IMG/VR virus record: IMGVR_UViG_3300018878_000100
Length of the DNA: 64,000 nucleotides
Source of the DNA: a virus
Direction: 5' to 3' (one strand)
Both the position numbers and the translations under genes were made by a program. The first letter of the stretch is position 1, and each line of letters begins with the position of its first letter. Below, piece after piece: positions 1-42,752 of the stretch. The notes under the pieces were generated by a model. It was given only the letters and a program-made list of their open reading frames with translations. It was not told the DNA's origin and searched no databases.

Positions 1-495
1 GAAACTTGGACTGATGAAGCTCGTAGTGAGGTTAATCAGCAGGCTCGTGCTAACGATTTGAGTCCTTTCTATGCTGGTTGTGTTGTATTGGTTGACTACT
101 ATGTTGCTCGTAAGTCTATGGCACAGCAGATTGATATCACTCCCGACAAGTTCGGTGGTAACTATTACCTAGAGGCTTCTACTCTGTTCCGTAATACTGA
201 GGGTGTTGATATGCCTGCAGAGTTCGTAATTCCTAACTGCAAGATTCAGTCTAACTTTACTTTCACTATGGCATCTTCTGGCGACCCATCCACTTTCACT
301 TTCACTATGGATGCATTCCCAGATTATACTCGTTTCGACCGCACTAAGAAGGTTCTGGCAGCTATTCAGATTATTGAATCTGCTGATACCGATAGCGCTA
401 TCGACCGTGTAAGCACTCATTCTACTGATACTATTGACTTCAATGGCATGGTAGCTGGTACTCGTCCCTTTGCAGGTTTTGCAACTGAGGAATAA
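1..495 (+). CDS. 5'-partial structural protein ending at TAA 493-495. It may be a major capsid or major tail subunit, but the family is not recognised. It contains a duplicated TFTFTM(A/D) motif.
   Basis: Frame 1 is open from base 1 with no stops of any kind. It is followed immediately by a strong terminator, as is typical of abundant structural genes. It sits upstream of the tail-assembly and tape-measure block. Confidence 0.5.
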   Translation, partial: ETWTDEARSEVNQQARANDLSPFYAGCVVLVDYYVARKSMAQQIDITPDKFGGNYYLEASTLFRNTEGVDMPAEFVIPNCKIQSNFTFTMASSGDPSTFTFTMDAFPDYTRFDRTKKVLAAIQIIESADTDSAIDRVSTHSTDTIDFNGMVAGTRPFAGFATEE

Positions 496-1751: not shown

Positions 1752-1780
1752 TTGACAAATCAGAAATTTTCTGGTATAAT
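1752..1780 (+). promoter_or_regulatory. Sigma-A/sigma-70 consensus promoter (TTGACA, 17 nt, TATAAT)
   Basis: TTGACA lies at 1752-1757 and TATAAT at 1775-1780 with a 17-nt spacer. An AGGAGG site and ATG 1816 follow. Confidence 0.55.
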
Positions 1781-1815
1781 ATAATTGTAAAATGAGATAA
1801 AGGAGGAGTTTAGCT

Positions 1816-2355
1816 ATGGCTAAAGTACCATTTTCAAAACTTCAAGCTAAAGTAGACGGAGGGGCAACAAGTGTCTTTTATTATAATTTAGCAGGAGAAG
1901 AAGTTTATTATGAAGTAAAACATTATTTACCTTTTAAGGAAAAGCTTGAATTAGTATCAAACATTATTAATAAGTCTATTGATGATAATGGATTTTACAA
2001 TCCAATGAGAGTAAAATTTAATATGGTATTAGAAATTACTTATGCTTATACTAATTTAAGTTTCACTGAAAAAATGAAAGAAGACCCATTTAAATTATAT
2101 GATATTTTAGTAAGCACTGGTATTTTTACAGATATTGTTGATGTTATTCGTGAAAAAGATTGGCAAGAAATTCAAGAAAATGTTTGGTCTACTATTAATA
2201 ATATTTATCAATATAATAATTCTGTAATGGGAATTTTAGATACATTAAAAGCTGATTATGATAATTTAAATTTTGATGCTACTGAAATCCAAAAGAAGAT
2301 TGGGGACCCAGAGAATATGGCTTTATTGCGTGAAGTCCTAACTAAATTGGGCTAA
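1816..2355 (+). CDS. Hypothetical 179-aa protein in the position of a tail assembly chaperone, immediately upstream of the tape measure gene. The call is positional only. It has no TAG.
   Basis: The ORF is intact with a strong AGGAGG site and ends in TAA. No slippery-site or frameshift partner was identified. Confidence 0.5.
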   Translation: MAKVPFSKLQAKVDGGATSVFYYNLAGEEVYYEVKHYLPFKEKLELVSNIINKSIDDNGFYNPMRVKFNMVLEITYAYTNLSFTEKMKEDPFKLYDILVSTGIFTDIVDVIREKDWQEIQENVWSTINNIYQYNNSVMGILDTLKADYDNLNFDATEIQKKIGDPENMALLREVLTKLG

Positions 2356-2402
2356 TTAAATTATTCTTATTATTTAGATTTTTAAATTTTAATAGGAATA
2401 GT

Positions 2403-2441
2403 CGGGGATGAGAATTTGATTATTCTCATCCCCGATTTTTT
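2403..2441 (+). terminator. Rho-independent terminator
   Basis: CGGGGATGAGAAT (2403-2415) pairs with ATTCTCATCCCCG (2422-2434). The sequence ATTTTTT follows. Confidence 0.65.
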
Positions 2442-2487
2442 ATTTTGCAAAATAAAAAATTAGGAGAGAAAGGAGATAAAAATTTGT

Positions 2488-5400
2488 ATGGCAAAAAATC
2501 TTAATGTTAGTTTAGCTTTTACTGCGAATACGAATGAGGCTATTGCCGCAATTAAAAATTTGCAAAAAGAGCTTAATGGATTGGCTACTGGTTCTGCATT
2601 GAAAAATAGTGGAATTTCACAAATTACACCTGAAATTCAAAGAGCTATGACCGCAGCAGGAGAGTTATAGGCTAAACTAGAAGCGGCTACAAATTTAAAA
2701 ACAGGAAAATTAGATTTAGGTCAATTTTCTGATTCCTTAAAAAAAGGCGGAGTTTCTCTTCAGCAATATGCTAATCAATTAAATGCTCTTGGTCCGGCCG
2801 GTCGTCAAGCATTTACGAATTTAGCTTAGTCTGTTTTATAGGCAGAAGCTCCTTTAATTAGATGCAGTCAAAGGGTTAGAGAGCTTGGTACTACATTAGC
2901 AAATACTGCAAGATGGCAGTTATCTTCTAGTATTTTACATGGTTTTATGGGAACCGTATAGTCTGCTTATGGATATGCTCAAGATTTAAATAAATCTTTA
3001 AATGATATTCGCATTGTTACTGGTGCTAGTGTTGCTGAAATGGATGCATTTGCAGCTAAGGCAAATAAGGCAGCGCGGGCATTAAGTACAACAACTAATG
3101 AATATGCTAAAGCTTCTTTAATCTATTTCCAATAGGGTGATACTCAATCTGAAGCTATGCAAAAAGCTGCTGTTACTGCAAAAATGGCAAATGTAACTGG
3201 ACAAAGCGCAGATGTTGTTTCTAATCAATTAACTGCTATTTGGAATAATTTTAACAAAGAAGGCGATGTTGCTTATGAACATTATGCCGATGTATTAACA
3301 AAATTAGGTGCTGCAACTGCGTCTAGCACTGATGAAATTGCTGGTGGATTAGAGAAATTTGCCGGTATTGCAGATACTATTGGTTTGAGTTATGAATATG
3401 CTGCATCTGCTTTGGCAACAATTACTGCAACATCTCGTGAAAGTGAAGAAGTTGTTGGTACAGCATTAAAAACAATCTTTGCACGTATTCAAGGTTTAAA
3501 GCAAGGAGACACCCTTGAAGATGGTACTACTTTAAATAAATACTCTGAAGCTTTGCAAAAAGTCGGTATTAGTATTTTTGACCAAACTGGCGAATTGAAG
3601 AATATGGATAGTATTCTTGAAGAAATGGCCGCAAAATGGGTAACTTTAAATAAAGACCAATAGTTGGCATTGGCTCAAACTGTTGCTGGTGTTCGTCAAT
3701 ATAACCAAATGGTTACTTTGATGGATAATTGGGATTTTATGGAAGAAAATCTTGCAACTGCTGGCGCAGCGGATGGAGAACTTAATAAACAAGCTGAGAT
3801 TTATGCTGAAAGCTGGGAGGCTGCTCGAGACAGAGTAACAGCAGCAGCAGAAAATTTATATACTAAAATTTTAGATGACGATTTTTTCATTGGTTTTTTA
3901 GATGGTTTAAGCCATGTTATTGATGGAGTAGGTAGTTTAGTTGATGCTTTTGGAGGTTTAGGTGGCGTTCTAGCAACTATTGGAGCTATTGCCACAAAAG
4001 TTTTCCATAAAGAAATTGCTTAGGGTTTAAGAAATGCTGCTTATAGTATTAAGCAATTTACTCCAGCGGGTAAAAAAGAACATGAAAAGACTAAAGAAGA
4101 TGCTCTTGAGGGTATTCGTAACTTAAAATCTAATATGCGTGGTCGTGAAGGCGATGCAGAAAATGCTTCTCTTGATAGAGAAATTCGTATGCAAGAATAG
4201 CTACGTGCAGCTGCTGGTCGCGTAACTGAAGAAGAGCTTAAATAGCTTCAAGTTCAAATGGATTTAGTACGAGCAATGGATAAGAGAGCAATTGCTGCTG
4301 GTAAAGCAGCGGATGCAGCAAGGGAAGAAGTTGAAGACGCTCGAGATTTAGCAAAAGCCTATGAGAAAATTGAGGCTAGAGATAAGGCCAAGGAAGATTT
4401 TTAGAAGAAACATTAGGGTGAAGAAAATCAAAAACGAAATGACGCAATATCTCAAGCCTTTGACGATGTAATAGATTATGGAGCAAATCACAGAAAGACA
4501 AAACATCATCGATTTGGTGAGTAGGGAGATTATATTAATTAGCAATATGCTTAGGCTCGGTAGAGGGTAGTAGATTCTGGTGAAACAGTAACAGCTGATG
4601 CTGTTCGAGGAGAATTTTTAGCTGGATTAAGAGAGGCGGCCGACAGTAGAGATGAAATGGCGAAAGCTATTTTTGATAAAGTTAAAGCTGCTGGAGAAGA
4701 AGCTGCTTAGGCATATGGTGAAGCTATGAAGTCTGAGCTAGATGAAGCAATGAGAGATGCTGAAAGATAGGCTAGCGAAAAAATTGAAAATATTGGAAAA
4801 GCAGTGGATAAAGGTGCTATGACGGAAGTCCGTGCCAAAGATTTAAGAGAAACTGCTTCTAAACTTTCAGTAAAAACTAAAGACGATAATGGTAATGAAG
4901 TTTATAAAACTGCCGATACTGGATTAGGTAAAGTATAGGATACATTAAAACAAAAGCTTGCTGCGACAGCTGCTGAAGCTAAAGAATTATAGGCTGCATT
5001 AGCTGCTTTGGGTAAATCTGATAGTGTATTAGATGGTAGAATTGCAGATTTAGAAAATATGACACAAGAATTAAATAGTACTACTGCTAGTGCTGAACGT
5101 CTTGAAGAAATTTTAGGATAGCTATCTAGTGAAGAGGAAGGCGGTATTACTTCAGTTCTTGAAGATTAGGCTCAAATGTTGACAGTGGATGCAGCAGGAA
5201 CGCCTTATGGTGGAGAAACAAGCGCAGATGCAAAAACTCGTGGAGGAGAAGATTATCTTCGTTCTAAGCAAGCTGCTTAGAAACAAATGGATAGCGAAAA
5301 CGCTAATTTAAATGTTGGCGGTAGTGAAGAAGGTTTAAATGAATCTTTTAATAAGAGCGGTTTAACAGATTGGGCCGATTAGATTACTAATACTACTGAT

Positions 5401-8400
5401 TTAATTATGGGACTAGGCTCTGCAATCAGTTCAGTATAGGGAGCTATTGATGTTTTTAATAATCCTGATGCAACAGCTTGGGATAAAATTAGTGCAGTAA
5501 TCAGTGTTGTAATCGGTATTTTACCAGTTGCATCAACTTTAATGACAATGTTTGGTACTACTGCAGCAACAGCAGGTGCAACTGCGAGTGCGGGTATGAC
5601 CGCTGCGTTAGGTTCAATTGGTTGGATTATTTTAGCAGTAACAGCATTGATTGCAATTTTTATTGCTTTAGGTTCTGCGATAGCAGCAAATTCTCCAGAA
5701 GGATAGCTGAAGAGTGCACAAGAAGCCACTGAAAAAACTGCACAAGCGGCACAAAATGCAAAAAGTGCTTATGAAGAATTGTTAGCTACTATCAATAGAT
5801 ATGATAGTGCAAAAGAATCGTTAGAAGGATTAGCTAAGGGTACCGAGGAATATACGGAAGCTCTCATGGAGGCTAATGCTGCGGCAAGAGAATTAATTGA
5901 TACTTATGAATTAACAAGTGATTAGTTCCATGTGGATGAAAATGGTTTAATTCAAATTGATGAAAATGCTCTTTAGACAAAGAAAGATGAACATCGTGAA
6001 AGAGTTGAAAAAACTTCTAGTGCATTAACAGGCGCTTAGAAATATGAGAATGAAAAAGAAGACGATGTTACTATTTCTAATATTCGAAAAGAAGCTAATA
6101 AGGATTCCATGTATTATGGGTCTGATTATTAGAATTATTTAATCTCTGATACTAATATTGAAACTGTATTAGCTGCGGCCAGAAATGCAGAAGGTGGTTC
6201 TGATGCTTATTTCGCTGAAGGTGAAAAAAATATTGCAGCAACAATGGGATGGGACCCAGATGCATTAACAACTTATTAGCAAGATTTTATAAATGCATTA
6301 ATGGAAAATTCCGCGGCCCTATCTGAAGCAAATGCAGCAATTTTAGCAAACGCAGCGGCCAATGAAGCTGCTACAAAAGCATAGTTGGCGCAAAATTTGA
6401 GTGATGAAACTGCATTTTAGGACAGTGAATATCAAGATGAGTTATTAGAAGCTGCATTAAATACTCAAGGGACTGAGGAATCAGAAGCTCAAGATAAGCT
6501 TGACGGAATGACTCAAGACCAAATGTATGATGCTTATGCTGAAATGATGGGCTATACCAATAATGGTATAGGTACTTGGTTAGATGGTAAGCAAGAGTTC
6601 TTGGATGCTGACGGAAATCCAATTGAGTTAACTCCAGAGCAAGTAGAAGCTCAAATGCGTGAAATGTACGCGCAAGAGGGTATGGAAGAAAATGCATTAA
6701 ATCTTGTAGATACTATGAATCAAGTAATGGCACGAGCTGATGAAAATAAAGGTGTTATTAGTACTGCTATTACTGGAGATACAGAAAAATTAACTATTGG
6801 TTAGTAGGGTATGAGTGCAGATGAAGTTGCTGCTATGGTTACTGATGAAGAAGCTCAAGCGATGGGCTTTGAAAGTGCGGCAGCTTTTGGAGAATCATTT
6901 GCTTCTGCTACAGAGAGCTTTGCTGGTGAATGGCAATCTTTAATGGGAAATTATGTTGACTCCGTTTCTGATTAGATGCAAACCATGTTTGATAATGGAG
7001 AGTTAGATAATCTAACTCTTGGACAGTCAGAAAATTTAGCAAATGCTTTTGAAACTGCATATGCAACTAGTGGATAGGCTGGTATGGATGTATTGGCTAA
7101 GATGTTTACTGATGCTGGTGAATATTCTGACGAATTTGCAAATGCTCTTGGAACTATAGACTGGAGCACTGCTACCCCAGAGACTTTACAAGACGCATTG
7201 GATGCCGCGGGTGTTGCTACTCATTATACTGCTGATGAATTAAATAATTTAATTAATGTAATGAACGAAGGAGCTATGGGCTTCGAAAATGCTGCAAATA
7301 AATATAAAACATTATCTGAGATTGTTGATTCATTAAAATCTGGTGATACTATTACAGCTGAGCAATTTAAAGAATTGGGTCCAGGTATGGAAGATTATTT
7401 CATGCGAATGGCTGATGGTACTTATAAATTAATTGGTGATGCAGAAGCTTTCTATGCTGCTGTTAATGAATAGTAGTTGGAAGGTTTTGAAAATACAATT
7501 ACTGCAAAAACTGAAGATAATGCAGAAATTGAAAATGTATTAAATCATGATATTAGCTCTTTGGGTAAGATGGATAGTACTACAATGGGTGGTCATGTTT
7601 ACACTGGAAATGGACAATTTGTTTAGAATACTGATGTAGCTAATGCTCAATTAAATTTCTTAGAGTAGACTGGCTATGACCCCGCTCAAGTTCAACAATG
7701 GCGTGATGATATGTAGGCTGGCACTTTAGATGTTAAAGCATTGACAACTGCTGTGAATGAACAAACAACGTCTCTTGGCGGAGCAGCAGCTGCAGAAGAA
7801 TATTTAACACAATAGCTGGATGCTAATAATACAGAAATTGAACAAAGTAAAGAGGCTATTGCATCTACGGCTACATCTTTAGATGAATTAGATTAGATGT
7901 TGCAAGATGGTAAGATTTCTGTAGAAGCATATGATAAAGCTGCCTAGGGTGCTTTTGAAAAAGAAGTTGAAGCTGAGGGTTTCGACACTGAAGAACTTAA
8001 TAATTATGTTGATGCATTAATTGAATCTGGTAAATTCTTAGAAGAAAATCGACAAGAAGCTCAAAAATTTGCTTTAGCTCAGTATCGGATGGAAAAAGGA
8101 TGCACTGAGTTGGTTGAAAGTTATGAAGATTGGGACAAAGTTTTATCAGATAATGAAGCTAGTTTAAAAGATATTAATAAAGTTATGCCAAAAGTAAATT
8201 CTATGTTACAAGATATGATGGACTTATCTGATGAAGAATTTGCTTTATTACCAGATAATTTTGCTCAAGATAATTGGAATTTAATTCAAGACGTTTATAA
8301 TGAAGTTGATGGAGCTTATGAAGCTTTAAGAGCAAAAATAACAGAAGAAATTGTTATGAAGGTTGTACTTGATGAATCTGCTTAGGGTCAAGTTATGACA

Positions 8401-11400
8401 GAAGTTAATAATTTTTTAGCCAATGTTAATTTGGATGATATTGAAGTTGGAGCAACTTTAGATTCCACTGGATTTGCAGCTGGTTTATAGGGATTATTGG
8501 ATTCTGGCGCAGTAACTGTAGAACAAATGAATGACATTTTATCAGGTATTGGTTATGAACCAATTATTGAATATGAACAAGTAGCAGTTAGTTCTTTTGC
8601 CCGTCAAAGCCAATAGGGTTATATTCAAGTTGCAGGTGTTGATGGAAGCATTGAATATGTGCCAATTACATCTGACATGGATATTAGTGGTGAACAATAT
8701 GTATATGTTCCAAAAATCGGTAGTTCTAAATATAAAGGCGGCGGTGGTGGTGTCGCTGATGCTAAAGCCAATAAAGGCGGTGGCGGAGGAGGCGGTGGCG
8801 GCTCCAAGCCAAAGAAAGCCGACAAAGTAAAGAAAACTGATGTTGTTGACCGATATAAAGAAATTGACGATAAACTTGATGACATTGCAGATAAAATGGA
8901 TGATGCTTCTAAGGCTGCTGACCGTCTATGGGGTCCTGCACGTTTAAAGCAAATGAAAAAAGTTAATGATGCTTTAGAAGAAGAAATTGATGCATTAAAG
9001 AAAAAACGAAAAGAAGCACAAGATAATCTTGATATTGATAAAAAAGCTTTGAAAGATACTATTAGTGCAGAAGCAGGAGTTACAATTACAGACGCAGATT
9101 TTGACGCAGAAGGCAATTTCACTAGATATGATGAAGTTTTAACTGATTTATATAATGAAATTGATGCTGCTATAGAAGCGGCCAATGCTGATGGTAATGC
9201 TGATGAAGATGAACAAGAAAAAATTGATAAAATTCAAGAGCGTATTGATAAAGTAAAAGAAGCAATTGACCAATATGATGAAACTCGTGAATTAATTGAA
9301 GATTTAGACAATGATATTCAAGATAAAATTTACGAATGGCAAGATAACAATTATGAACAATTAAATTATAAACTTGAATATGAAATTGAAATTAATGATT
9401 CTGAACTTGAATTATTAGAATATTATATGGGCAAAGCTGAAGGTAATATTTATAAAACTGCAGAAGCTTTTGGATATTTAGCTGGACAAGCCGATATTTA
9501 TACTGATAATTTAAAGCATCAAGAAGAATATGTTAATGAATTAACTAGGGCTTATTATGCTGGTGAAATTTCTATGGATGCATATAAGGAAGGTTTGCGT
9601 GAAGCTCAAAGTGCAACCATTGAAAACTTATAGGCATTAGAAGAACAAAAGAAAGCTATGCAAGAGTATTATGGTGAAGTAATGGATATGGCTCTTGAAG
9701 AAATTTCTTTGTATACAGATGAAATGGAAGAGTTAAATTCTGTTCTCGACCATTATTCTAATATTCTTGAATTAGTTGGTAAGCAAGAAGATTATGCAAC
9801 CAAGGGTAAAGTTTTACAATCCAAAGCCGCAAATCTTCGCAATGAAATGCAAGTCCAACAAAAACTTTATGAAAAGTCTAATGCCGAAGCTGAAGATTGG
9901 GCTGCTAAAATGGCAACAGCAATTGAAGGTTCTAATGAGTATGAAACTTATAAAAAGAATTGGATTGCGGCCCAAGAGGCAGCTAATGAAGCTCAAGAAA
10001 ATATGTTAAGTAAGACTGAAGAGTGGGCTGAAGCAATGAAGGCAGTTATTGAAAATGAATTAGCTGGATTAGCTAAGACCATGGAAGAGTCTTTAACGGG
10101 CGGAACTTCATTTGATGAGTTATTAACTTCTATGGAGCGCCGCAGTAGTCTACAAGAAGAATATCTAACAACTACAAATCAAATTTATGAAACTAATAAA
10201 TTGATGCGTCAAGCTCAACAAGAAATTGATAAAACTACTAACTCTGTAGCAAAGCGAAAGTTGGCTAATTTCATTAATGAAACAGAATAGATGCAAAATC
10301 AAACTGAGTTAAGTCAATATGAGTTAGATATCCAGTAGGCCAAGTATGATTTACTTTTGGCTGAAATTGCATTAGAGGAAGCTCAAAGTGCTAAATCTAC
10401 TGTTCGCTTACAGCGCGATAGTGAAGGCAATTTTGGTTATGTTTATACTGCGGACCAGTCTGCGGTCGGTGAGGCCGAACAAGAATTGGCAGATAAGCAA
10501 AATGCTCTTTATAATCTTGGATTAGAAGGTGCTAATGATTATAGTCAAAAGTATGCTGAAACCATGCAAGAAGCTCAAGATGCTATTACTGAATTAACAG
10601 AAATGTGGATGAATGGTGAAATTGAGTCTGAAGAAGAATATCAAAGACGCAAGGCTGAAATTCAGGATTATTATTATGAGAAATTAAAGCAATATTCAAG
10701 CTTATATCAAGTAGCATTAACTACTGATAGTAATGTTATCAAAGATGCTTGGAGTACTGACTTTAGTGATATGATGTATAAGACTGAAGATTGGAAAGTC
10801 GCAACTGATGATTACTTTGCCGGAGCTGCTGAAAGCATGAAGACCTGGGCTGAAGTTTGTGGAACCGTTCTTGAGGAATCTGGTCTTGATGACGTAAGTA
10901 AAAAGGTTGAAGAAATCAATACCAAGAGTGAGAATTTGAAAAATACTCTAATTGGTGAAGATGGCGAGAGCGGCGTTGTTGGTGCAATGATGTCTGAAGT
11001 TGAAGCTGCGGGTAAGTTAAGTGAAGCTTATATTGGCATTCAAAATCAAATTGATGAAGTTATTAAGAAGTATGAAGAAATGATGGGTGTAATTAATGAA
11101 GATTATACCAATGAAAATACTCCTGAAGTTACTCCTGCGATTACTCCAGACCCTGAACCCGAGCCAGAAGAACCAGTTCCTGAACCAGAGCCTGAACCTG
11201 AGGAGGCCACTGTTCCTGAATTAAAGGTTGGTTCTACAGTTACCGTTAAGAAGAGCGCAAGCAGATGGGCTACTGGAGAAGGTATTTGGAATCCAGTTAA
11301 GGGCAACAATTTCAAAGTTAAGAAAATTAATGGAGAAAAAGTTCTTATTGGAGACCCTTCAGGTCCTAACTATAGTGCTTCTGGCATTACAGGTTGGATT

Positions 11401-11763
11401 AAGAAAACTGACCTAGAGGGCTTTGCTACTGGTGGCTACACTGGAGACTGGGAAGGTTCTTATGGTAAGTTAGCAATGTTACACCAAAAAGAATTGGTGC
11501 TAAATGCAAATGATACTGAAAACTTCTTGCAAGCAATGGATATTCTTGATAAGATTGTTTCTGCTATTGATTTGTATAGTATGAATTCTCAGCTTGGTGG
11601 AGCTTTATCTAGTCCGTCTCTTGGAAATATGGGCGGTGGAGATGTCCTTGAACAACAAGTACATATTGAAGCTAGTTTCCCAGGAGTACAAGATAGAAAC
11701 GAAATCGAAGAAGCATTTAATACTCTTATCAATAGAGCATCTCAATATGCTAATCGTAAATAA
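2488..11763 (+). CDS. Tail tape measure protein of the TP901 family, about 3091 aa, read through about 51 in-frame TAG codons
   Basis: An AGGAGA site precedes ATG 2488. Frame 1 is continuous to TAA 11761-11763 and is interrupted only by TAG. Track ORFs 2488.., 3157.., 3664.., 6508.., 7084.., 8089.., 8659.., 9658.. and 10357.. are all in this frame. The TP901-type core is recognisable at about 3100-3500 (…VTAKMANVTGQSADVVSNQLTAIWNNF…LTKLGAATASSTDEIAGGLEKFAGIADTIGLSYEYAASALATITATSRESEEVVGTALKTIFARIQGL). A hydrophobic, Ala/Gly-rich segment lies at about 5400-5700. Long coiled-coil regions are present. A Gly-rich linker lies at 8740-8810 and a PEPEPE linker at 11150-11215. An SH3-like segment follows (VGSTVTVKKSASRWATGEGIWNPVKGNNFKVKKINGEKVLIGD…GWIKKTDLEG). 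The protein ends with the motif typical of Gram-positive phage tape measure proteins (GYTGDWEGSYGKLAMLHQKELVLNANDTENFL). Confidence 0.9.
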
Positions 11764-11769
11764 ATTTTT

Positions 11770-11805
11770 GGGTAGGTTATAGAAATATAACCTACCCTTT
11801 TCTTT
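11770..11805 (+). terminator. Rho-independent terminator
   Basis: GGGTAGGTTAT pairs with ATAACCTACCC and a T-rich run follows. Confidence 0.65.
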
Positions 11806-11825
11806 ATTTGGTCTAATTAAAAAAA

Positions 11826-11854
11826 TTGACTTTTCACAAATTTTATAGTATAAT
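11826..11854 (+). promoter_or_regulatory. Sigma-A consensus promoter (TTGACT, 17 nt, TATAAT)
   Basis: TTGACT lies at 11826-11831 and TATAAT at 11849-11854 with a 17-nt spacer. The site is upstream of the ribosome-binding site and ATG 11888. Confidence 0.55.
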
Positions 11855-11887
11855 AGATTAAGGAGAGAAAGGAGAGTTTGAGTATTT

Positions 11888-14800
11888 ATGGCAATTGAAG
11901 TTGATAATCTATTTCAAGCACTAGATATTATTTTAGATTAGCGCTTGCAAAATATGAATTATGATAAAACCGATGTTTGTATTATTACTGATGATAGAGA
12001 TGCTAAAAATGGTCACTATTGGGTTTCTCCAAACAATGGTGAAACTAGATATGAAGCATTTAGTGAGTCAGAAGAATATAAAAAAGGTGAGAGTGTCAGA
12101 GTTTCTATTTTAAATGGAGATTATACTCAAAAGAAATTTATCGTAGGTAAATATGTAGTAGATGATGCTATTACTCCCATTACTTATGTTTCTCCTCTAG
12201 ATACGGTTATTGATGTTACTGGAAATATGATTAGTGAAGCCAAAGCTAATGCTCAATATGGTTTAATTTCAAATGGTACAGTATCAGAAATTCCGATTTG
12301 GAGTGCGGATTTGGCTTTAGACCAATCTTATAAAGATTTACAAGCCAGTGGCATTTATAATACTATTAGTTTATCTGCTAATTTTAAAACTTTATTAGAT
12401 AACTATGATATGCGTTCAGGCTCTTTTGGATTGCGCCTAGATGTATATGTAAAATTAAATCCAAGTAGTGAAAAATATATTGTTCGCTCTGTGTATATGG
12501 ATAGTTCTGAAATGTTTGGTAATCCATATGCTTTTACACTATATTCTCCCCAGAGTAGAAAATATGATTTAAGTCAGCTTGGTGCCGTTGAAAAATTAAG
12601 TTTATGGTTTTATCAACGAGGAGATTTTTCTTATTATGATTCAAATCAAAGACAAACAGTTAATATTGATTATAAAAAAATTCCAAGAGAAAATATTTTA
12701 TTGAGAGATATTAAAATTGGATTTGGTAGCGATTTGACTATTGTTCAAGATAATACAATTCAAGCTTTTACAACCAATTCTTCTACTTATAGATTAATTG
12801 TTACTAAAGCAGATAATGAAAAAGGATTAGGATTTTTGTGGTATAACAAAGATGAAAACAATCAATATTTGGGATACAGCGATGGCATTGTTGATTTTGA
12901 ATATAAGGATGGAAATGTTGTTTATACCAATAAGCTTGATAAAAATTAGAATAAAGTAACTCAAGATGTTCTTGATGAAAAGAAACGAGCTATTTTAGAA
13001 TTTGCTAAGGATGATAAGGATAATGTTATCCTAGTCTCTGTATTAGATGATGATGGATATGAAATTTCTTTTGATGATTTAAAAATCACTATTGACGATG
13101 CTTTAATCATTTTAGCAAATGAGGTTAGTAATTTAAAACTCCAATTACAAATTCAATATGACAATGAAGAAATTGGTTTTAATGAGTTCATAGCTCGTAA
13201 ATCAGATATTGATAATTATGAGCGAGTTAAACGGACTTATCTTAATACTAATTATTCTAATGAAGAGCTTGAGCAAGCTATTGAGAGCCAGCGTAGTGCA
13301 GAATTGGAGGGTTTAAGATTACAATTCGAAGCTGGTGCTTTTGGCGAAGGCGATGAAGCAAATTAGAGATATAATAAAGAAATAGCAAAAGTTAATGATT
13401 TATATAACAATAAGCGTGCTGAATTAAGAAATTATAGAGTTCAAAAAACCTATGTTCTTTAGAAGAAATAGCAAGATGTAATGATACAAAAAGTCGCTCC
13501 ATATGATGAGTTTAAATATATGGAAGAAAGCGAAACAGATGCTCGTTTAACCGCACAAGCCGGCAAAGAAGGCGTTCCTTCTGATGCTAAGAGTTTAAAA
13601 TTATCTGCAGATTTGGCTGAAGTTAAGCCTTTAATGACTAAAACTTTTGATTTAGTTACCAAAGATTTAACTGCGGTGCTCCGTCAAATGCGCGACCGCA
13701 CGAACTCTATCGCAGATATCACTACGGCTTTAAATGCATTACTATTAACTCCTACCAAGGATGCCGCAGGACAAATCCACGGTACGGAAAGAAATAACAT
13801 TCTTGCTTGGTATGATTTTACTGATGCAATGAGAGAAGAAATGTATGGTGTTTATACAGAACTTCTAGAATATAATTATTTACATTAGGAAAATTTAAAG
13901 AAACTTCCTGCAGAGCAAGAAACTGATGCTATCCTTAGAGAGAAAATGGGAGAGCATTTACAAGCTTGGAATAAATCTGATTTATATTTAAATATTCAAA
14001 ATAGTTTTAAGTCTTCTTTAATTCCAATGATAACTAACTTTTTTACAAATGCTCAAACTACAATTGATGCAAATTATAGTGGTTATCAAGGTATTTATGA
14101 TACTTATAAAACTAAGGCTGATAAAATAATTGTTCAAATTAATGAGAATTTAAATAAAATGTGGGCAATTGTTGATGACAATAATGCTATTATGGTAGAC
14201 ATGAGACCTTATAATAATGGCCGCGTATATTTAGATTATAATAAAAAAGATTTATCTAACTATGATAATCGTTATGCAATCTATTGGTATAGATATGAGC
14301 CTGGATACACAAGTGATGATAGATTATATCCAACTGAATGGAAACGTTTAACGACAAAAGCTGATTTCGGTATTGATGAGTCTGATGAATTAGTATATAA
14401 CTTTGGATTACCAATTTATGATGATTTTGTTTTAAGAGATGGACAATACTATTTTTCTGATAAGGTTCAAGGAACCAATGTCTCTGCAATTCGCATGATG
14501 GATGGACAGAGAGTAAATGAAAAATATAAAATTGTTTTATTCTATAATCACGAAATGTATGAAAGTAATGAAGTAGAATTTACTAATTTAGATGATGTAG
14601 TTGACCCAACCACAGCAGATAAGAATGATGCTATTGTTATTACTCACGGCACGAATTCACAAGATACTTACCAGAGTTATGGTTTAAGTAATTTCTTGGT
14701 AAATGCGGCCGACGCAAGTAAGGTGCGAGAATTATCTGTGCATTATGAAGGTATTCTTGCAGGAGATGAAGCTTTAGCTAATACACAAGTATATTGGTAT

Positions 14801-17800
14801 ATTCCAAATACTGCTACTATGTTAACTTGCGATGATAAGCATTTAACTGAAACTTTAGGTTTTTATTCTGATTTAAATATTTCAGACGGAGAAAAACCTG
14901 ATTATAGTAGAAATGGTTATACTTGTTATTATAAAACAATTGGTGTAGAAACAGTGCAAATTACAGATGACCCAGAAACAGAAGAGGTTGAATCTGGAGA
15001 AAAAGTTACTGCAAAAGCAAGTGATTTAACATTCACTTATAAGATTAAAGATTATTATTTATCTACCTCAAGCCGCAATGAAATTTTCTGTAAGGTAGTA
15101 AAGGATGAATATACATTTGAGACAAGTATTGTTTTGGCATTTACGTCTCTTGGAACCAGTGGTACTGATTATACATTGGCAATTACTCCTTCTACAACTC
15201 AAATTGCAACTTATGCTTCTGGATATTTGCCATTAAATATTGTTTTATATGATTATAAAAATAATACTATTCCTATGACTACAAATTTATTATCGACAGT
15301 AAAAGATGGAGCATCTAACTTTAAGTTAGGTTGGGAAGGACCACACTCCTATGATTTTGCTACATTATCTGATGCCGATGATAATATCGTTGGAGCGAAT
15401 ATTCAATTAACAACTTAGCCATAGGATAATAATAGTTTAATTTATGGTGTTTTAAAAGCAACTGTTGATTGCCCTATCGAATACACTGTAAATACAGAAG
15501 AGGATGAACAAGAAAATAAGGAAAACGCTAATAAAACAGCAAGTAGAAATGCAACTTTAACTTCTTATTATCCAATTCCATACAGTGCTGGTAATTACTA
15601 TATTGAAGGTGCAACAACTATTGTTTATGATAGTATGGGAAGTAATCCTTCTTATTATAAAGACCCATATAAGATTTTTACTTGTAATACAAATGAAAAC
15701 CTTGCAGACAAGAAGATTATTCGTGCAGGTGTGGAATCTGATAAGCCAAAATATGATATCCTGTGGCGAATTGTTTATTATAAAAAAGATAAAGATGGTA
15801 AGGTTGTAAAACTAGATAAAAATATCCATGCTGATTATAATATTTGTCGTAGTTATATGCCCACTTTAAATGAGAAAAATGGTTTAAATGCATCAAATAT
15901 GTACATGGGCAATATGGATTGTTGGTGCGCAGTTGAGTGTTGGTTAAAAGACCTTGAAACTGCTACTTATGATACTAAATATTCTTTAATTTGGGTTCAA
16001 CCTATTTTTATCTTACAAAATCGCTATCCGTCTCCAATGCTGAACTCTTGGGATGGAAGCTTGACAATTGACAAAAAAAATGGTACAATATTATCATCAT
16101 TAGTAGGTGCTGGTCGAAAAACTCGTGATAATACTTTTGAAGGTGTACTCATGGGAGATATCGAAGGCAGTGCCGGAATCGTAAATGCTGGTAATAAATC
16201 TGGTTTAGGTATTTATGGTTTTAATGATGGCGCTCAAAGTTTTGGTTTTAATGTCGATGGTACAGGTTTTATTGGTAAATCTGGTAGAGGTAGAATTTTA
16301 TTTAATGGTAATGAAGGTATTATTCAAAGCGCTTCTTATACAGCAAATGAAGATAAACCTTATGGTATGAAACTTGACTTTGATGATGGTTGGCTTGAAA
16401 TGCGAGGCGGCCTAGAGTATGATAATGATGATTGGGCAAATGAGGTTGTCAATCATTATAAGGAAATCCTTGCCGCAAAAGTATATAAAGTTGATGAAAA
16501 TACTCAAGCATTAGTAGCAACTACAAAATATATTATTGATAGAGATATAATGGATTTGGATGTTCAAGAAGCATTGCTTGAAAAGATTAAGTATGATGCT
16601 GCTCATCAAGCAAATATGTATATTGAGGGTCGAGCCATTGCCAAAAAAGCTAAAGATAACGGAGAGATAACTCAAGAAGAATATCAAAAGTTATTTGATG
16701 AGCTTTATGCTAAAGAGCAAGAGAAAAAATACTATGCAATGACTACATTAAAAACTGCTAGTATTGGAAGAGGTTTCTCTATTAATGACAAAGATTATGA
16801 ATTAACCATAGAACAATATAATGCTATTTTAAATGAATTAGATGAATATATTTTAGCAGAAACTTATGATGGTGAATTAAAAACTGATGCTGAAGGTAGA
16901 AAATTTAATTATAAGAGTAGATATGGTACTCTTTCTAAAGCTTTACAAGAGTTTGAGGCTCAAGGTCATAAAGTTCTTGGAGATTCAGAAGAAGCTAGTG
17001 ATGTTACTTTAACTGAAGTTGAGGTTACAAATCAAAGTCATATTCGTTTAGATGTTAAATCTCCTTATTTCTATATTATTAGCGAATAGGGTAAACGTAT
17101 TTTAAATATTGGTGATGGCACTGGATTTGACTTTGAAGATTATCCATATTTACAATATTCAATTGAAAAGTTCCAGCGAGATAAAGATGGAACAATTCTT
17201 TTAGTTAATTTAACTGATGAAACTGGTTCAACTATTAAAATTGAAGATATAGATGAGGCTAAAGAATTATTAAATTCTGAATGTTCAATTTTAAGAAGTG
17301 ATGCTTATAATCGTTTTTAGATAAAAAAGAGCATTACTCAAAAAGATTATGATAATATTTGTTTAGATATTGAGGATTATCGTACTAAGAAATTAGCATA
17401 TTTAAATACTTGGACAGAAGAAAATGCTGAAACTTTTATTGATAAGACTTATGAAGTTGAATATATTCAAAAAACTGGTTTTATTGGTACTGGTACACAA
17501 AAAACGAATTGGCTTGAACCTTATGGAAGAAACCTTTCTAAAGGTTATTATTTAAAATCTAATGATTTTACTTATACTGCTTTTAGTAAAGAGGATGGTA
17601 TTGCAAGCGGTCAAGGTTCAGGCTTTTTACTTGATTTAACAAATGGACACATTAATGCAGCAAATTTAAGCATTGCTTCAAAAAATGTATTTATTGATTC
17701 TGGTAAAAATGCTGACCCATTTTTTATTATTAAAGATAATGATGGATGTAATTTAATTTATGCTGGACAATAGGATTTTTATATTCAATCTCATACATAT

Positions 17801-19531
17801 TCAAGATATGCTCTTGGAGATAGGCTAACTGATGATAATGGTAAACAATATTATTATCCAGGTATGAAAATTGATACTGATGGAAATAATTTTTTATTTG
17901 ATATTAGAGGTAATTATCAATCAATAGTAAATATTAATAAGGATGAATTTTTCCTGCAAACTGATAATTATAAAATTCGAGAATATATTACTATAACAAA
18001 GTGTTATAATCAAGATTATAGTATGAGTTTTGATATACAGGTCGGTAAAGCTGAAAAAGGACATATTATTTATACTGCACCAAATTTTAATAAAAAAAGT
18101 GAAAATGTTACGACTGAAGAACATACTTCTATTACTTTATATGAAAGTAAAAAAATTGATGGAATAATGTGGTATAAAATTAACACTGAGCAATGGATAC
18201 CAGCATTATCTTTTGAATCGATTGAGGTAAATGATGAAGGTATTGGTACTGGTATAACTTATTTAAACCAAATTATTTATAGCGATTCTGATTATAATTC
18301 TATTAAAGTTGGTTTTACCAAAGATTCTCATGTTGCAGGTGTTAATATTTAGGCAACTAGAGCAGTTGATGGAGTAGAGTGGTATGCTATTGAAGTACTT
18401 GAAGTTGAACATTGGCTACCTGATTATTCTATTAAAACTGGTTCTTATGGTTCTGGTATTAGATTGGATTTGTAGGGTGGCTATATTGATGCTTATGATT
18501 TTATTATTCGAGGTGAATCTAGCACAGACCCCACTGCAGGTTCTTATTTATTATTAGATAGTTAGACTCCGCAATTTGTAGTTCATTTAACTACTCCAGA
18601 CAGTGATGGTATAATTGATTTAGATTTAATTAAAATTTCTCCAGATGAATTTTATTTACATTCTGCAAATTGGTTAGAAACTACTACTCAAGTCACCACT
18701 TAGCGGACAGCTAAGATGGACGGCGGCTGGAATATTAGAAGCGGTCCTGGTATGGATTATTCTATTATCGGTTATTCTTCAAGTGGAAAAAGAGTGGTTG
18801 TATATGAAAAGCAGGGAGATTGGTACTGTATCGGAGAAGACTAGTGGATTTGGTATGAAGGTTTAACTGATTTTCAAGAAGGTGGAACCGCAAATAAAAC
18901 TTATGGCACTGGCATGGAAATTGATTTAAATGATGGTCGTATTACTGCATACAATGCCAATAATGCGGGTAAAGAATTATTAATTAATTCATTACATGAT
19001 ACATATCCAATTTAGCTAGGAGAAATTGGAGATTATAATTTCCAAATTGGTTGGGATGGTAGTTTAAAGGGCGGTAGTATTTATGGTTGGAGTATTGATG
19101 CAAGTGGTACTGCTACGTTTAATCGTTTGAATGCTAATGGTGGTGTTTTAAGTTGGATGTCTATCGGCAGTGCTAATATTTATGATGTTGATATTACTTC
19201 TGGCACAATTGCAGGTATGGACTTCACTACTGGAGGCATTACTGCAGGAGATTGGAATTTTAGTTCTAATGGATTAAGTCATAATGGAAAAGCAATGGAA
19301 AAGAAAACTTATGATTCAGTGCGCTATATGTCTTTATGGACAAAAAAAATACCAGTAAGTGTTAGCGGTAGTTGCTCAATCGAAATTGATGGAGCTACTT
19401 ATTATGGCTCATGCTCTGCTAGTGGAAATACTACTGAAGATGTAGGTTATAGAATTGGTTATGTAAAAATGATTTATAATGGATATGGAGAAGAAGGTCA
19501 AGAGTCTGCAGTTGTATTTACACCAGCATAA
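11888..19531 (+). CDS. Giant tail-tip or baseplate structural protein of about 2547 aa, read through about 17 TAG codons. It may combine distal-tail (Dit-like) and tail-associated functions; that is not proven.
   Basis: An AGGAGAG site precedes ATG 11888. Frame 2 is open to TAA 19529-19531. Every interrupting stop is TAG (11939, 12947, about 13364, 13460, 13466, 13886, 15416, 15422, 17087, 17318, 17771, 18350, 18472, 18553, 18700, 18841 and 19012). Track ORFs 11945.., 13481.., 13946.., 15635.., 17864.. and 19127.. share this frame. In about 33% GC DNA, 2547 codons free of TAA and TGA cannot be non-coding. Confidence 0.6.
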
Positions 19532-20326: not shown

Positions 20327-20353
20327 AACTTATTGCAGAGAGAAAGGAGATTA

Positions 20354-30580: not shown

Positions 30581-32302
30581 ATGGCAGATACTAATGTTAT
30601 CACTATTGCTGATAATTCTCAGATTAAGTTTTTACATGGTTTACAAACCGCATTAGATGCTAAGAGAACCGCCCGTTCTGGCGAAAGCGGCACTTTCTAC
30701 TTAACCAATGATACTCATAGATTATATGTTGGTTTAAGTGATGGTAGCATCGAAGCTGTTAATGAAGGTATTACTACTTACGCTACCGTGGAGGTCTTAC
30801 CAACTGCAACTGCTTTAAATGCTGGTCAATTCGTTTATATTACAGCTGATTCTATTTTAGCTGTTTCCAATGGTCAAAATTGGGTTCAAATTAATGCCAA
30901 TACAGATACCAATTATACTTATGGCGGTCTAGTCACAGGAGAGCAGACAGGAACTGTTACTGTAACAACTACTTTAACAGAAATTGGTGAAGGTAATAGA
31001 AAACCTTCTTTCGCTTTCTCTTTAACTGGTAAAAATGGTATTACTATTGTTGAAGGTACAACAGATGGTACTATTGAAGTATATGGTACTAAATTAGCCA
31101 GCGAAAATATGGCTCAAGATAATGCTGCAAAGATTAAGTTAGTTAATGAAGCTGGCGTACAGCAAAGTGCAGTTGTTATTCAGGGTGGTACCAATGTTAC
31201 TGTTAGCGAAGATAATGGCGTAATTGGAATCACTGCTGCTGACACTAAATTAGATGGTAACACTCATACAGCAACCGCTCATGCTTGGGACCCCAAAGAT
31301 GAGACCAATAAGCCTGGTGGATTTACTGTAACAGTTAAAGATACTGCTAATAGAAGTTCTAGTAGCACATTTAATCCTGCAATTAAATATGGTGGTAGTG
31401 GCACTTCTACTGCTAAGTTCAGCAATGGTACTGCGACTTTAGATGTATATACTAAAGCAGAAGTTGATGCTTTAAGAGCAGACTTTGACGCAATGGAATA
31501 TCAGGGTGTTGTTAATAGCATTCCTACTGGTTCCATTAAGAAAGGTTATACTTATAAAGTTGGTCAAGCTTTTGATGTAACAGTTAAAACCGATACTGGT
31601 ACTGAAGAGATTACAGTACAGCCTGGTGACTTATTGATTGCAGAAGGCACTGAAGGTACCAATGGATTCTTAACTACTGTACAATGGGGTTATGTTCCTT
31701 CTGGTAATGAAGATACCACTTACTCTGTTGGTTTATTGACTCCAGCAAATGGTGGTGGTATTCAATTATTAGAAAAGAAAACTGGCACTACTACTGGTAC
31801 TAATGCTGGCTCTATTTCTGTATTAAGTGGAAATTGTATTACTGTAAGTCCAAGTTCAGACACTGCTTCTAAGGCAATGTCACTGACTATTAATCATAAT
31901 GCGGTAAGTACTACTGACCCAGCTAGAGATACCACTGGTACTTTAAATAATCCTACTCTTGGCACCGATTATGTTGCTAAGTCAGAAGATATTGTTATTA
32001 TTGATGCCTCTAAGGGCGAAAATGGTATTGATAGAGACAATTATGGTCATGTACAGAAAGTATATACCAAGACCGTTAAAGTCTATGATACTAATGCTCG
32101 TTTAACTGGAATGACTTCCAGTGTATCTAGTGACACTGCTAAGACTAAGGCTACTGTTTCTATTAAGGGTCAAGTAACTGGCTCTAAGAATCAAAAGAGT
32201 GAGCAAACTGCTACTTTCTATGTTGAGTCTACTCATAGTAACTTGCAGGTAAGTAGCTCTGGCTCTAGCGTTCAGATGTCTCTGGTTTGGGGCACTTTCT
32301 AA
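30581..32302 (+). CDS. Structural or fibre-associated protein of 573 aa with no TAG
   Basis: The ORF is intact with a GGGGAAAAC site and ends in TAA. The product is Thr and Gly rich. Confidence 0.55.
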   Translation: MADTNVITIADNSQIKFLHGLQTALDAKRTARSGESGTFYLTNDTHRLYVGLSDGSIEAVNEGITTYATVEVLPTATALNAGQFVYITADSILAVSNGQNWVQINANTDTNYTYGGLVTGEQTGTVTVTTTLTEIGEGNRKPSFAFSLTGKNGITIVEGTTDGTIEVYGTKLASENMAQDNAAKIKLVNEAGVQQSAVVIQGGTNVTVSEDNGVIGITAADTKLDGNTHTATAHAWDPKDETNKPGGFTVTVKDTANRSSSSTFNPAIKYGGSGTSTAKFSNGTATLDVYTKAEVDALRADFDAMEYQGVVNSIPTGSIKKGYTYKVGQAFDVTVKTDTGTEEITVQPGDLLIAEGTEGTNGFLTTVQWGYVPSGNEDTTYSVGLLTPANGGGIQLLEKKTGTTTGTNAGSISVLSGNCITVSPSSDTASKAMSLTINHNAVSTTDPARDTTGTLNNPTLGTDYVAKSEDIVIIDASKGENGIDRDNYGHVQKVYTKTVKVYDTNARLTGMTSSVSSDTAKTKATVSIKGQVTGSKNQKSEQTATFYVESTHSNLQVSSSGSSVQMSLVWGTF

Positions 32303-32367
32303 TTTGAGGACAAAAGGTATTAAGAAGATTATTTCGATTTTTAATTAAAAATAGAGGATAATCTAAT

Positions 32368-32405
32368 AGGTGGGAAGAAGATTATTCTTCTCACCTATTT
32401 TTTTG
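32368..32405 (+). terminator. Rho-independent terminator
   Basis: AGGTGGGAAGAAG pairs with TTCTTCTCACCT, with one G-U pair. The sequence ATTTTTTTGTTT follows. Confidence 0.6.
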
Positions 32406-32435
32406 TTTATAAAGGAAAGAAAGGAGTTTAAATAA

Positions 32436-35400
32436 ATGAGTGAAAATTATGGCGTAAAATTTATTCCCGTCCGTGGTTATGACAGTAAGATTCAGCGTGC
32501 TGAAGTAAAAGATGGATGGATTTATTTTGCTACTGACTCAGGTAAGATTTATGTCGATAGCCAGGGCCAAAGAACTATTATGGGTTCTGCGGGCGCCGCA
32601 ATTTACTATGGTGAAGTTGAGAAACCAGAAGTAAATGAAGATACGGGCTATGCAACACTTCCTAAGAGCGCTGTTAAAGGCGACCCTAAGAAAGGCGACC
32701 TAATCTTAAATTCCGATGGCGGTTTCTATAAAGTTGAATTAATTGGTGAAGAAAACTATACTTGTGAATTGCTTTCTATTAGCGGCACAGGCGGTGGTCC
32801 CGGTGTTTCTACTACTACTCGTCCATCAATCACTTTAACTCTTGACAATACTAACTTCATTAATGGTCAAGAGGCTTATTTCCATATCCATGCAGAGTCT
32901 GCTTTAGAGGCAGATGGTGTGACTCCTGTAGATACTACATTGAATGTTGTATATTCTTTGGGTACTCGTATTTCCGACGAGGTTATTGATAACTATACTA
33001 CTCAAACTCGTACTTATAAGACTGGTGAATCTGACTATGAGGGCGTTCCCGGTATTATTGATGACTATATTGAAATTGGTTCTCTATTAAGAGAGTCCTC
33101 TTCTAGTGTGTTGTCTGTTTATGTTCAAGGTGCAAATCATGACGAAAAGAGCCGTACTAGAACTGTTGACTTATCAACTTCTGCATTAAAGTTATCTCAA
33201 GTTTCCGGTTATAACCCAGCTACTAGATATCCTACTTCTGGATTCCAAATTAAGTGCGGAGTTGTTGGTTCTTTATCTAAGGTCTTAGATTTCTACTATG
33301 ATGATATGAATACTCCTGCTGAAACTCGTGTTATCGAGGCTAACGTAGCTAATAGTACTCAGACATTTACAGTAGGTACAGACAAAGCAACTCACGGATA
33401 TCACACTGTTCGTATTGAGCTGTGGCAGAACACTGGTACTTCCAGTAATCCTAAGAGAGGCTTAGGAGTTGCTCCACTACAGTACGAAATCGCAGTTATT
33501 GAAACAAGTAACGCAAATGCTAAACCAGTAATTTGGTTGGGTGATTATAAGGCTGAATATTATAATTACGATACTATTCAAATCCCATTCTTAGTATGGG
33601 ACCCCGCAAATACCAACTCTACTAAAGTGCATTTGTATAAAAATAATATTGAATTAGAAAGCTCTCCTCGTGAAGTTAAGGATTTCTCTAAATTTGATTA
33701 TTGGGAAATCGCTGATGCAGAAATGAATGCTTTAAATAGCTATCAAATTTCTTGCGGCGAGACTGATGAAAAATTTGTAAAGAGAGAAATTGAGTTTAAG
33801 GTTGTTAAAGACCCTAATCGTGATATGACTGTTGAGCAAGCAGGATTGTTATTAGACTTCTCTGCTACTGGACGTTCTAATTCTGAGTCCGCAGCTAAGA
33901 GACAGTTGTGGAGCTACACTTTGAATGGTGAAAAGAAAAACGCCATTTTCGAAAACTTTAACTGGTATAATAACGGTTGGATGATGGATTCAAGCATTAA
34001 CCAGTCTTGTTTAAGAATTAGTAATGGTGCTAGATTAACTATTCCATTCCAGCAGATGGTATTTGCTGCCGGTGTTAGTGGACAAGAGTCTCACACTGTT
34101 GAAATGCAATTCCGCATTCGCAATGTTCAAAAATATGATAATTTAATTACCAATATTACTCGTTATCAAGGTGACGGTGTTTGGTATGAAGCTTTTAAAG
34201 CTCAAAAAGATACTGGCTATTCTAACTATGATGCTTACTTACAAGCAACTTTAGACCCAGACACTTATGATAATTTAAAATTCCAAACTGTTGAAAAGAA
34301 TATTAACATTACTAATGTTGCCGCAGGTCTATATGATTATGATGCAACCAATGTTAAAGCTACTGGTTTCTGCGTAGGCACTCAGGACGCTTTCTTCTCA
34401 AACGGTGAAAATACTGTTAACGTAAACTTCGTTGAAGATGAGTTAATTAATTTAAGTTTTGTATATCAAGATAGCTTAAAATATTTATATATCTATATCA
34501 ATGGTGTTATTACTGGTGTTATTAAGTCTACTGACCCTGACGCCTTTACAATTAATAGTGGAAACTTTGTTTTTGATTCTAGTAATTGTGACATTGATTT
34601 ATATAAATTGAGAATTTATAATTCTGATTTAAATGTTAATCAGATTGTACAAAATTTCTCTGTTGACCGCAAGAACGTAAAAATCTTTGACCAAAGTAAT
34701 GCTTATGCATTGGCTGAGGAGAATAATAACTTGAAAGAGTTCCAGTTCTCTTATGAAGCTATGCTAAGATATAATGAAGCTCATCCTAATGAACCTTTGA
34801 TGCCTTATATCATTTACGATACTGGTAATGCTACTTTACCATATAGTAAAGACGATACTAAATACATTAGTGTTGAATTTGTTAATACCAATTTGGAAAG
34901 AGCATATGCTAATGGTGAATTAGAGACTTTGGCTCGTGCCGATGGCTTAATCGCAGAAGGCGAAACTGATAGTGATAAAATTAAAGAAGGCGTTCGCTTG
35001 TACTACAAGCATCATTGCCCATCTTGGATTTCCACTATGACTTCTGGAGATAAGGTTGAATTTGCTGTTCAGGGTACTTCTTCTGAGTTCTATCCTCGTC
35101 GTAATTACAAGATTAAGACTAAGGTAGAAGGAGAATTTAACTGGAAACCAATCGCAGACTTTACCGATAAGGAGAAGGCTGAATTAAAACCAGAAGAGCT
35201 TGAAAAATTAAATGCTGAGAGCGGTTTATATATGGAAGAAGATTCTTTAAATATCTTCTTAAACCGTGGACCTTATGCTGAAGTTTTCGTTTCTGATAAA
35301 GCTAAGTTAGCACAAGATAGTAAATATCTTGGACATGAAGAGTGTCGTTGTGCTGATGGTTGGTATATGAATAACTATACTAACGGAACTGATAGATGGA

Positions 35401-40487: not shown

Positions 40488-40503
40488 TAAAGGAGGATAA
40501 AAA

Positions 40504-40713: not shown

Positions 40714-40747
40714 TTTAATTATTTAATTAAATTATCAAAATAATAGA

Positions 40748-40776: not shown

Positions 40777-40799
40777 TAAAGAAAGGATGATATTTAGAA

Positions 40800-42731: not shown

Positions 42732-42752
42732 TAACTTGAAAGGAGAGGTAAA

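Follow-up and report, generated by a model that had tools for sequence, protein, structure and literature searches.

The window described here, a stretch of 64,000 nucleotides (nt) from the virus record IMGVR_UViG_3300018878_000100, is the late (structural) arm of an uncultured gut siphophage with a genome of about 130 kb in which TAG is recoded to glutamine (Gln). Its tail genes are interspersed with two promoter elements, P1 and P2, and three intrinsic terminators, T1 to T3. We consider it probable, from comparison with related sequences, that P1 and P2 are functional promoters for the host's housekeeping sigma factor, and that together with T1 to T3 they split the tail genes into units that set protein levels. 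On the loci compared, the arrangement appears to be ancestral in this clade of 130-160 kb gut siphophages. The elements and the genes that they delimit are listed below in order; lengths of proteins are in amino acids (aa), and dG is the free energy of the hairpin.

515 to 548, + strand: T1, intrinsic terminator after the tail-tube (YomU-like) gene; 15-bp stem and T-run; dG -24.1 kcal/mol
579 to 1748, + strand: gene lying between the tube gene and P1, for a 389-aa protein of unknown function; TAG in 9 of 22 Gln codons
1752 to 1780, + strand: P1; TTGACA at 1752-1757, 17-nt spacer, TG at 1772-1773 (TGn extended -10), TATAAT at 1775-1780
1816 to 2355, + strand: YomO-family gene, 179 aa, at the tail-assembly-chaperone position; no TAG; PF27287 (weak), phrog_30570
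2400 to 2447, + strand: T2, intrinsic terminator closing the putative P1 unit; 16-bp stem, then TTTTTTATTTT; dG -28.0 kcal/mol
2488 to 11763, + strand: tape measure gene, 3091 aa, with T2 ahead of it and T3 after it; 50 in-frame TAG; PF10145 (E=1.2e-25)
11770 to 11806, + strand: T3, intrinsic terminator after the tape measure gene; also delimited as 11770-11797, 29 nt ahead of P2; T-run; dG -19.1 kcal/mol
11826 to 11854, + strand: P2; TTGACT at 11826-11831, 17-nt spacer, TATAAT at 11849-11854
11888 to 19531, + strand: distal tail gene, 2547 aa, with an SH3_3 domain, first gene of the putative P2 unit; 17 TAG, the first at codon 18

Conserved promoters and terminators between the tail genes

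A preliminary description of this DNA had reported both promoter motifs, and we read them in the sequence at the positions that it gave. It had called the two perfect, which is true of P1 (12/12 consensus match) but not of P2 (11/12). Both lie on the coding strand, 35 nt ahead of a start codon (ATG at 1816 for P1 and at 11888 for P2), and occupy two of the few intergenic gaps in a span that holds about 320 nt of intergenic DNA; P1 is followed by a ribosome-binding site, AAGGAGG, at 1800-1806. Transcription is predicted to start near 1787 from P1 and near 11861 from P2. The hexamers, the 17-bp spacer, the strand, the distance to the gene, and the selective conservation of the recognition elements are all those of housekeeping sigma-70/sigma-A promoters, and no Rfam family was found in the intergenic regions around P1, P2, and the terminators.

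Loose promoter-like matches (at least 9/12) are not enriched between 1 and 20 kb, where 92 were observed and 90.2 were expected from shuffles. For strong matches, counted over the whole window and both strands, the expectation was taken from first-order Markov simulations: matches of at least 11/12 number 10 (4.3 +/- 1.9 expected), and a 12/12 match occurs once (0.115 expected). Other strong matches were noted elsewhere in the window. TTGACT-17-TATAAT is also found at 46238-46266 and 49352-49380, within Laminin_G_3 tail-fibre genes, in their 3' parts, the latter 52 nt ahead of the start of the gene at 49432-51858; both are kept in the close relatives L013-L015 and could be extra internal promoters. 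On the minus strand, TTGACT-17-TATAAT with TG at 62116-62144, at the end of an NrdG-like gene and ahead of the next minus-strand gene, is an internal promoter of the P1/P2 class in the replication arm.

Orthologous loci were taken from IMG/VR (L019-L027) and from contigs of metagenome-assembled genomes (MAGs) in GTDB (L032-L044). In 19 lineages, the most distant of them with about 30% protein identity, a P1-type promoter with an invariant 17-bp spacer stands ahead of the YomO-like gene. The match is 12/12 in 13 of the 19 aligned lineages and at least 10/12 at the fixed spacing in all of them, with TG in most, and the distance from the -10 hexamer to the ATG is 22-39 nt in most. In this alignment, information content peaks solely at the -35 hexamer, at T-15/G-14, and at the -10 hexamer, while the spacer and the flanks vary. 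The reading of the motifs as chance matches in AT-rich intergenic DNA, for which one could cite the G+C content (GC) of the window, 35%, and the ordinary frequency of weak matches, is effectively refuted both by the rarity expected of a 12/12 match and by the recurrence of the element at the orthologous position in lineages whose surroundings have diverged.

The terminators are kept in the same manner. T1, T2, and T3 each combine a GC-rich hairpin and a U-tract at a gene end, as Rho-independent terminators do; T2 is found in 18/18 lineages, and T3 in 12/12 lineages for which the gene end is available, in both cases with covarying stems whose sequences are unrelated between lineages. P2, the conservation of which was read from the 10-kb flanks of the YomO-like gene, recurs in six lineage groups, with equivalents in L021/22 (12/12 with TG), L025/26 (TTGACT-17-TAAAAT with TG), L036, and L038 (12/12 with TG); a search of IMG/VR with the N-terminus of the distal tail gene found no relatives. 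In L021 (18920-19000) and L038 (19604-19690), the T3 hairpin and the promoter that follows the tape measure gene overlap: the -35 hexamer lies across the stop codon or immediately after it, and the -10 hexamer abuts the 5' arm of the hairpin. The predicted P2 start of L021/22 and L038 would then fall inside the 5' arm, and transcripts from upstream would terminate there, whereas P2 transcripts would not. This compact terminate-and-restart layout would have the same outcome as the order seen in the window, with the terminator first and the promoter second.

An additional feature common to genes that follow a terminator is an extended purine-rich leader, GAGAGAAAGGAG, ahead of the start codon. 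It is found at 2465-2480, 11861-11874, 20333-20345, and 32412-32426, and also in relatives.

Proposed transcription units and polymerase

Under the explanation that we favour, P1, the YomO-family gene, and T2 would form a self-contained unit with a monocistronic mRNA of about 660 nt, from which a small protein, encoded at the tail-assembly-chaperone position, should be made in large amounts. The tape measure gene (9.3 kb) has no promoter of its own and would be transcribed by read-through of T2 only, so that its mRNA would be kept at a low level. T3 would stop what remains of tape measure transcription, and P2 would restart transcription at full strength for the distal tail genes. Promoter activity in vivo, incomplete termination at the hairpins, and a purpose of setting a protein ratio, with many chaperones and few tape measure molecules, are inferred. 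In the order tube, 389-aa gene, YomO-like gene, and tape measure gene, the YomO-like gene sits between the tail tube and tape measure genes, as G/GT-type chaperone genes do. It has 1315 homologues, is syntenic in all relatives examined, and has family members in SPbeta and in Enterococcus EF1-like phages; the AlphaFold2 (AF2) model of its product is helical, with a predicted local distance difference test (pLDDT) score of 72.6.

A number of observations weigh against this explanation. P2 is absent from L023, L033, L035, L039, L041, and L042, about half of the lineages, and the restart is therefore not obligatory. Later terminators at about 32.4, 43.35, and 47.1 kb have no following promoter, so read-through or antitermination must exist anyway, and both EF1 and SPbeta lack P1. 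The searches also assigned no function to the YomO-like protein: it gave no Pfam match above threshold in a local scan, the PHROGs that it matched are all of unknown function with none annotated, and a Foldseek search of its AF2 model against PDB and BFVD returned no informative fold match, with annotated chaperones matched only at E-values above 1. Neither does the gene show the overlapping -1 frame of the G/GT type, as it is followed by a 132-nt spacer that holds T2 and no overlapping open reading frame (ORF). The literature on YomO or YomU was uninformative as to function.

The phage is distantly related to SPbeta and to Enterococcus phage EF1. An identical 104-kb ENA contig (k141_1991094) carries, upstream, the SPbeta-family structural proteins YonD, YonB, YomW, YomV, YomU (the tube protein, assigned by PF27173 on this contig), and YomO, while the minus strand from 58.5 kb on holds replication genes, including those for dUTPase, NrdD, and Pol III alpha. 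All cultured relatives (Enterococcus EF1-like, Lactococcus 949-like, and Bacillus Tsamsa-like phages) are distant, as is phAss-1, and megablast with positions 1-25 kb of the window found no match among GenBank phages. The MAG labels of relatives conflict (Limenecus, Acutalibacteraceae, Muribaculaceae, Bacilli, Mollicutes), and we therefore assign no host. We walked the genome with identical contigs (tiles L127, L129, L208, L010, the window, L017, L047, L223, and L224), which span -36.8 kb to +87.5 kb relative to the window, or about 124 of about 130 kb, with about 5.6 kb uncovered and the circle not closed.

On an identical contig, the structural arm begins 16.2 kb upstream of P1 at a divergent promoter pair of the P1/P2 class, both with TG: TTGACT-17-TATAAT on the + strand and TTGACA-17-TATAAT, which serves the opposite arm, on the - strand. 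From the arm's first promoter to the tube gene, which comprises the head module, there is no convincing terminator. Neither a phage-specific promoter class nor a phage-specific RNA polymerase is apparent in the structural arm, and a phmmer search with SPbeta YonO against ORFs of at least 150 aa in the tiles reached a best E of 0.05, at the sensitivity of a single-sequence query. Transcription of the structural arm by the host polymerase is thus the best-supported reading. The preliminary description had taken transcription here to be constitutive and of host type; the housekeeping-sigma class of the promoters bears out the second part.

Genetic code, TAG use, and alternative explanations

Reading TAG as sense raises the + strand ORF cover from 47 to 60 kb, and none of the genes terminates in TAG. 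TAG can be assigned to Gln because TAG columns, when aligned with standard-code relatives, show a preference for this residue (17.5% compared with a background of 6%; 2.5-2.8 times background). The in-frame TAG codons that had been described in the tape measure gene and the giant tail gene are thus genuine. Of the two promoters, which had been placed ahead of TAG-containing or adjacent late genes, P2 is followed by a gene with 17 TAG; P1 directly precedes the TAG-free gene at 1816-2355 and not the tape measure gene, with T2 lying between these two genes.

The relatives differ in their genetic code. L025-27, L036, L042, and L043 use the standard code, as their giant tape measure ORFs run through without interruption when TAG is read as a stop, and L041 (JBJEYJ010000086.1; 27% GC) appears to be TGA-recoded, with a 2808-aa tape measure ORF that is intact only when TGA is read as sense. 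Judged from these ORFs, the clade holds standard-code, TAG-recoded, and TGA-recoded members. P1 is present in all of the standard-code lineages named and in L041, T2 and T3 in L025, L036, L041, and L042, where they could be checked, and P2 also in the standard-code L025 and L036. Because standard-code and TGA-recoded relatives have P1, T2, and T3, the architecture of promoters and terminators appears to predate TAG recoding and to be independent of the genetic code; P1 and P2 are not specific to recoded members, as promoters tied to recoding should be.

Within recoded genomes, TAG use follows codon-bias class and not a split between early and late genes, since capsid, scaffold, and tube genes are essentially TAG-free and about 8 of about 19 replication-arm genes contain TAG (4 in the guanylate kinase gene, 2 in a RecJ-like gene, and 9 in a GIY-YIG gene), although no TAG occurs in the main replication enzymes. 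Pooled capsid genes have 1 TAG, 17 CAA, and 56 CAG, and pooled tube genes have 4 TAG, 32 CAA, and 48 CAG, whereas the pooled orthologues of the gene just before P1 have 110 TAG, 96 CAA, and 8 CAG. The scaffold and capsid genes of the window's phage have no TAG; its first structural-arm gene, the terminase-like, portal-like, and tape measure genes, and most tail genes do. These findings give no clear support to the suggestion of the preliminary description that late-gene timing could be gated in translation. The suppressor tRNA that it had postulated for the phage was not found either: ARAGORN, which detected the CUA tRNAs of phAss-1 as a positive control, and Rfam revealed no tRNA gene, suppressor or other, in the window and the tiles. 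The source of TAG decoding is therefore unexplained, unless it lies inside the uncovered 5.6 kb or so.

Several further observations concern codon use. Two codon classes can be seen (L127 9926-14221; window 1-495; L019-L039 orthologues): in capsid, scaffold, and tube genes Gln is written as CAG and hardly ever as TAG, while in the gene before P1 and in the tape measure gene it is CAA or TAG and hardly ever CAG, which looks like a replacement of CAG by TAG in genes under weak selection. In a 12.8-kb block at 30581-43340, none of the 118 Gln codons of its five genes is TAG (with the TAG share pooled over the window, P is about 4e-10). The block has CAG use and third-position GC (GC3) above those of its neighbours and hairpins on its flanks; it may be a recent acquisition or a high-expression class. 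Inside this block, 32436-40487 encodes a TAG-free protein of 2683 aa with a C-terminal BspA-type leucine-rich repeat (LRR). We considered this protein as a virion RNA polymerase and rejected the idea, as it shows just the BspA-type LRR and no PDB relative. In the other arm, L208 2000-17000 (about -20 to -34 kb relative to the window) consists of about 15 kb of small TAG-free genes at 44-49% GC, compared with 35% elsewhere in the genome, and may be early/host-takeover or foreign DNA. Finally, a tail-fibre gene with a Shufflon_N domain in L014/L015 (18618-20588, corresponding to about 51.9-55.4 kb of the window) varies in length from 563 to 1290 aa, which suggests a variable host-recognition locus.

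The preliminary description had proposed constitutive transcription of the structural arm by host-type promoters, with late timing set in translation, by the availability of a TAG suppressor. Such a model has been published for other recoded phages, with stop-codon recoding as a post-transcriptional regulator of late/lytic genes (Borges et al., bioRxiv 10.1101/2021.08.26.457843). In favour of the model, the three promoters of the structural arm each have a consensus sequence that calls for no activator, the divergent promoter of the other arm belongs to their class, and no phage RNA polymerase was found in the tiles. In SPP1, promoters that match the consensus are early ones, whereas the characterised late promoter, PL1, is atypical at its -35 and depends on an early phage factor (PMC6316719). 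The TAG codons of the arm's first gene and of the terminase-like, portal-like, tape measure, and most tail genes would also fit a gate, as would the TAG-free state of the 15-kb small-gene region and of the main replication enzymes. However, the same promoters and terminators occur in standard-code relatives, so that tolerating them takes no gate, and P1's own gene has no TAG in the window. The near absence of TAG from capsid, scaffold, and tube genes across lineages, its presence in the replication arm, and the tRNA search also speak against the model, and the first TAG of the tape measure gene, at codon 61 of 3091, is not unusually early. We therefore regard a translational gate as unlikely. 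Since recoded and standard-code sisters share their promoters and terminators, promoter strength alone is no evidence of translational timing, and P1 and P2, offered earlier as a pointer to gating, add no specific evidence for it: they neither support nor exclude the published model. Gating may apply to the recoded members, yet the comparative data do not favour it. The strictest version, in which the arm of recoded members is served only by activator-independent host promoters, with no phage polymerase or late promoter class, and TAG decoding is the sole temporal barrier, a timer layered onto ancestrally unregulated transcription, seems to us slightly less likely again; if true, TAG decoding alone would delay the portal, terminase, tape measure, and tail proteins.

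Regulation could alternatively lie in transcription, with P1 and P2 early or basal and confined by the terminators, and with bulk late expression coming from the arm-start promoter after the appearance of a phage factor (lambda-Q-like antitermination, or activation). The arm has at least 7 strong hairpin terminators, most of them with no following promoter, its head module is free of convincing terminators, and the requirement of SPP1 late transcription for an early factor provides a precedent. This explanation leaves the perfect P1 consensus in so many lineages unaccounted for, and no antiterminator, put/nut-like element, or Rfam family was recognized. It also overlaps the explanation that we favour instead of excluding it, and as an alternative we judge it improbable. 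Phage morons are promoter-gene-terminator cassettes in the late operons of lambdoid phages, and the unit from P1 to T2, a single small gene between tail genes flanked by an autonomous promoter and terminator, resembles one. It could then be expressed alone (early or in a prophage), with a role in, for example, exclusion or anti-defence; the gene is TAG-free in the window and so translatable in the standard code, and its GC is 27%, compared with 30-37% for its neighbours. The criterion of accessory DNA separates the two, because the YomO-like gene belongs to the conserved, syntenic core of the clade, has family members in SPbeta and EF1-like phages, and is not an insertion. In addition, the orthologues of L023 and L039 have in-frame TAG, the gene in the window has 5 Gln codons only, among which zero TAG is not significant (P=0.4), and no integrase was seen in the tiles examined. 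A moron-like cassette is thus very unlikely, and we also rejected, given the same TAG-containing orthologues and P value, the idea that the P1 unit is kept TAG-free for expression before a code switch.

Comparison with known systems

Our reading of P1 and P2 as host promoters, which with T1 to T3 would set the levels of tail proteins, provides a concrete and conserved transcription map for the tail region of very abundant uncultured large gut siphophages. The recoded and standard-code sister lineages form a natural control for the idea of recoding-gated late genes, and the P1 and P2 sequences, along with the overlaps of terminator and promoter in relatives, are ready-made parts for reporter tests.

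Among studied phages, SPP1 is a large siphophage of Bacillota that uses the host polymerase; its late-gene clusters are bounded by stem-loop terminators, and an early sigma-A promoter, PE5, lies inside its late region (PMC6316719). The window shares with it both the stem-loop-delimited late clusters and a sigma-A promoter inside the late region, but differs in that the structural arm here starts with and contains consensus promoters. In SPbeta, 37 late genes form one operon with a promoter for the single-subunit polymerase YonO upstream of yonK (PMC5467207), and no sigma-A promoter precedes yomO. The homologous YonD, YonB, YomW, YomV, YomU, and YomO families occur in the same order in the two phages. 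Unlike this model relative, the phage of the window has no detectable YonO in the 124 kb or so covered and has host-type promoters instead, and these phages thus appear to use the host polymerase for their structural genes.

The phAss-1 group (PMC10607447) resembles the window in its TAG-to-Gln recoding of structural genes, in being a gut phage of about 130 kb, and in a tape measure protein of about 3100 aa, with identities between phAss-1 and the window's phage of 54% for the tube and 32% for the tape measure protein. phAss-1 has 36 tRNA genes, three of which, located on the replication arm, are Sup-CTA, whereas no tRNA was found in the covered part of the genome here. Neither this work nor that of Borges et al., in the text of which the word "promoter" occurs zero times (bioRxiv 10.1101/2021.08.26.457843), uses promoter evidence.

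The anatomy of the elements in the window is identical to that of Gram-positive sigma-70/sigma-A promoters (with the -16 TG) and Rho-independent terminators, and nothing in it differs. Compared with ordinary housekeeping promoters, they are unusual only in their setting, as perfect-consensus copies kept within the structural module of a phage. The parts are ordinary, and their arrangement is well conserved.

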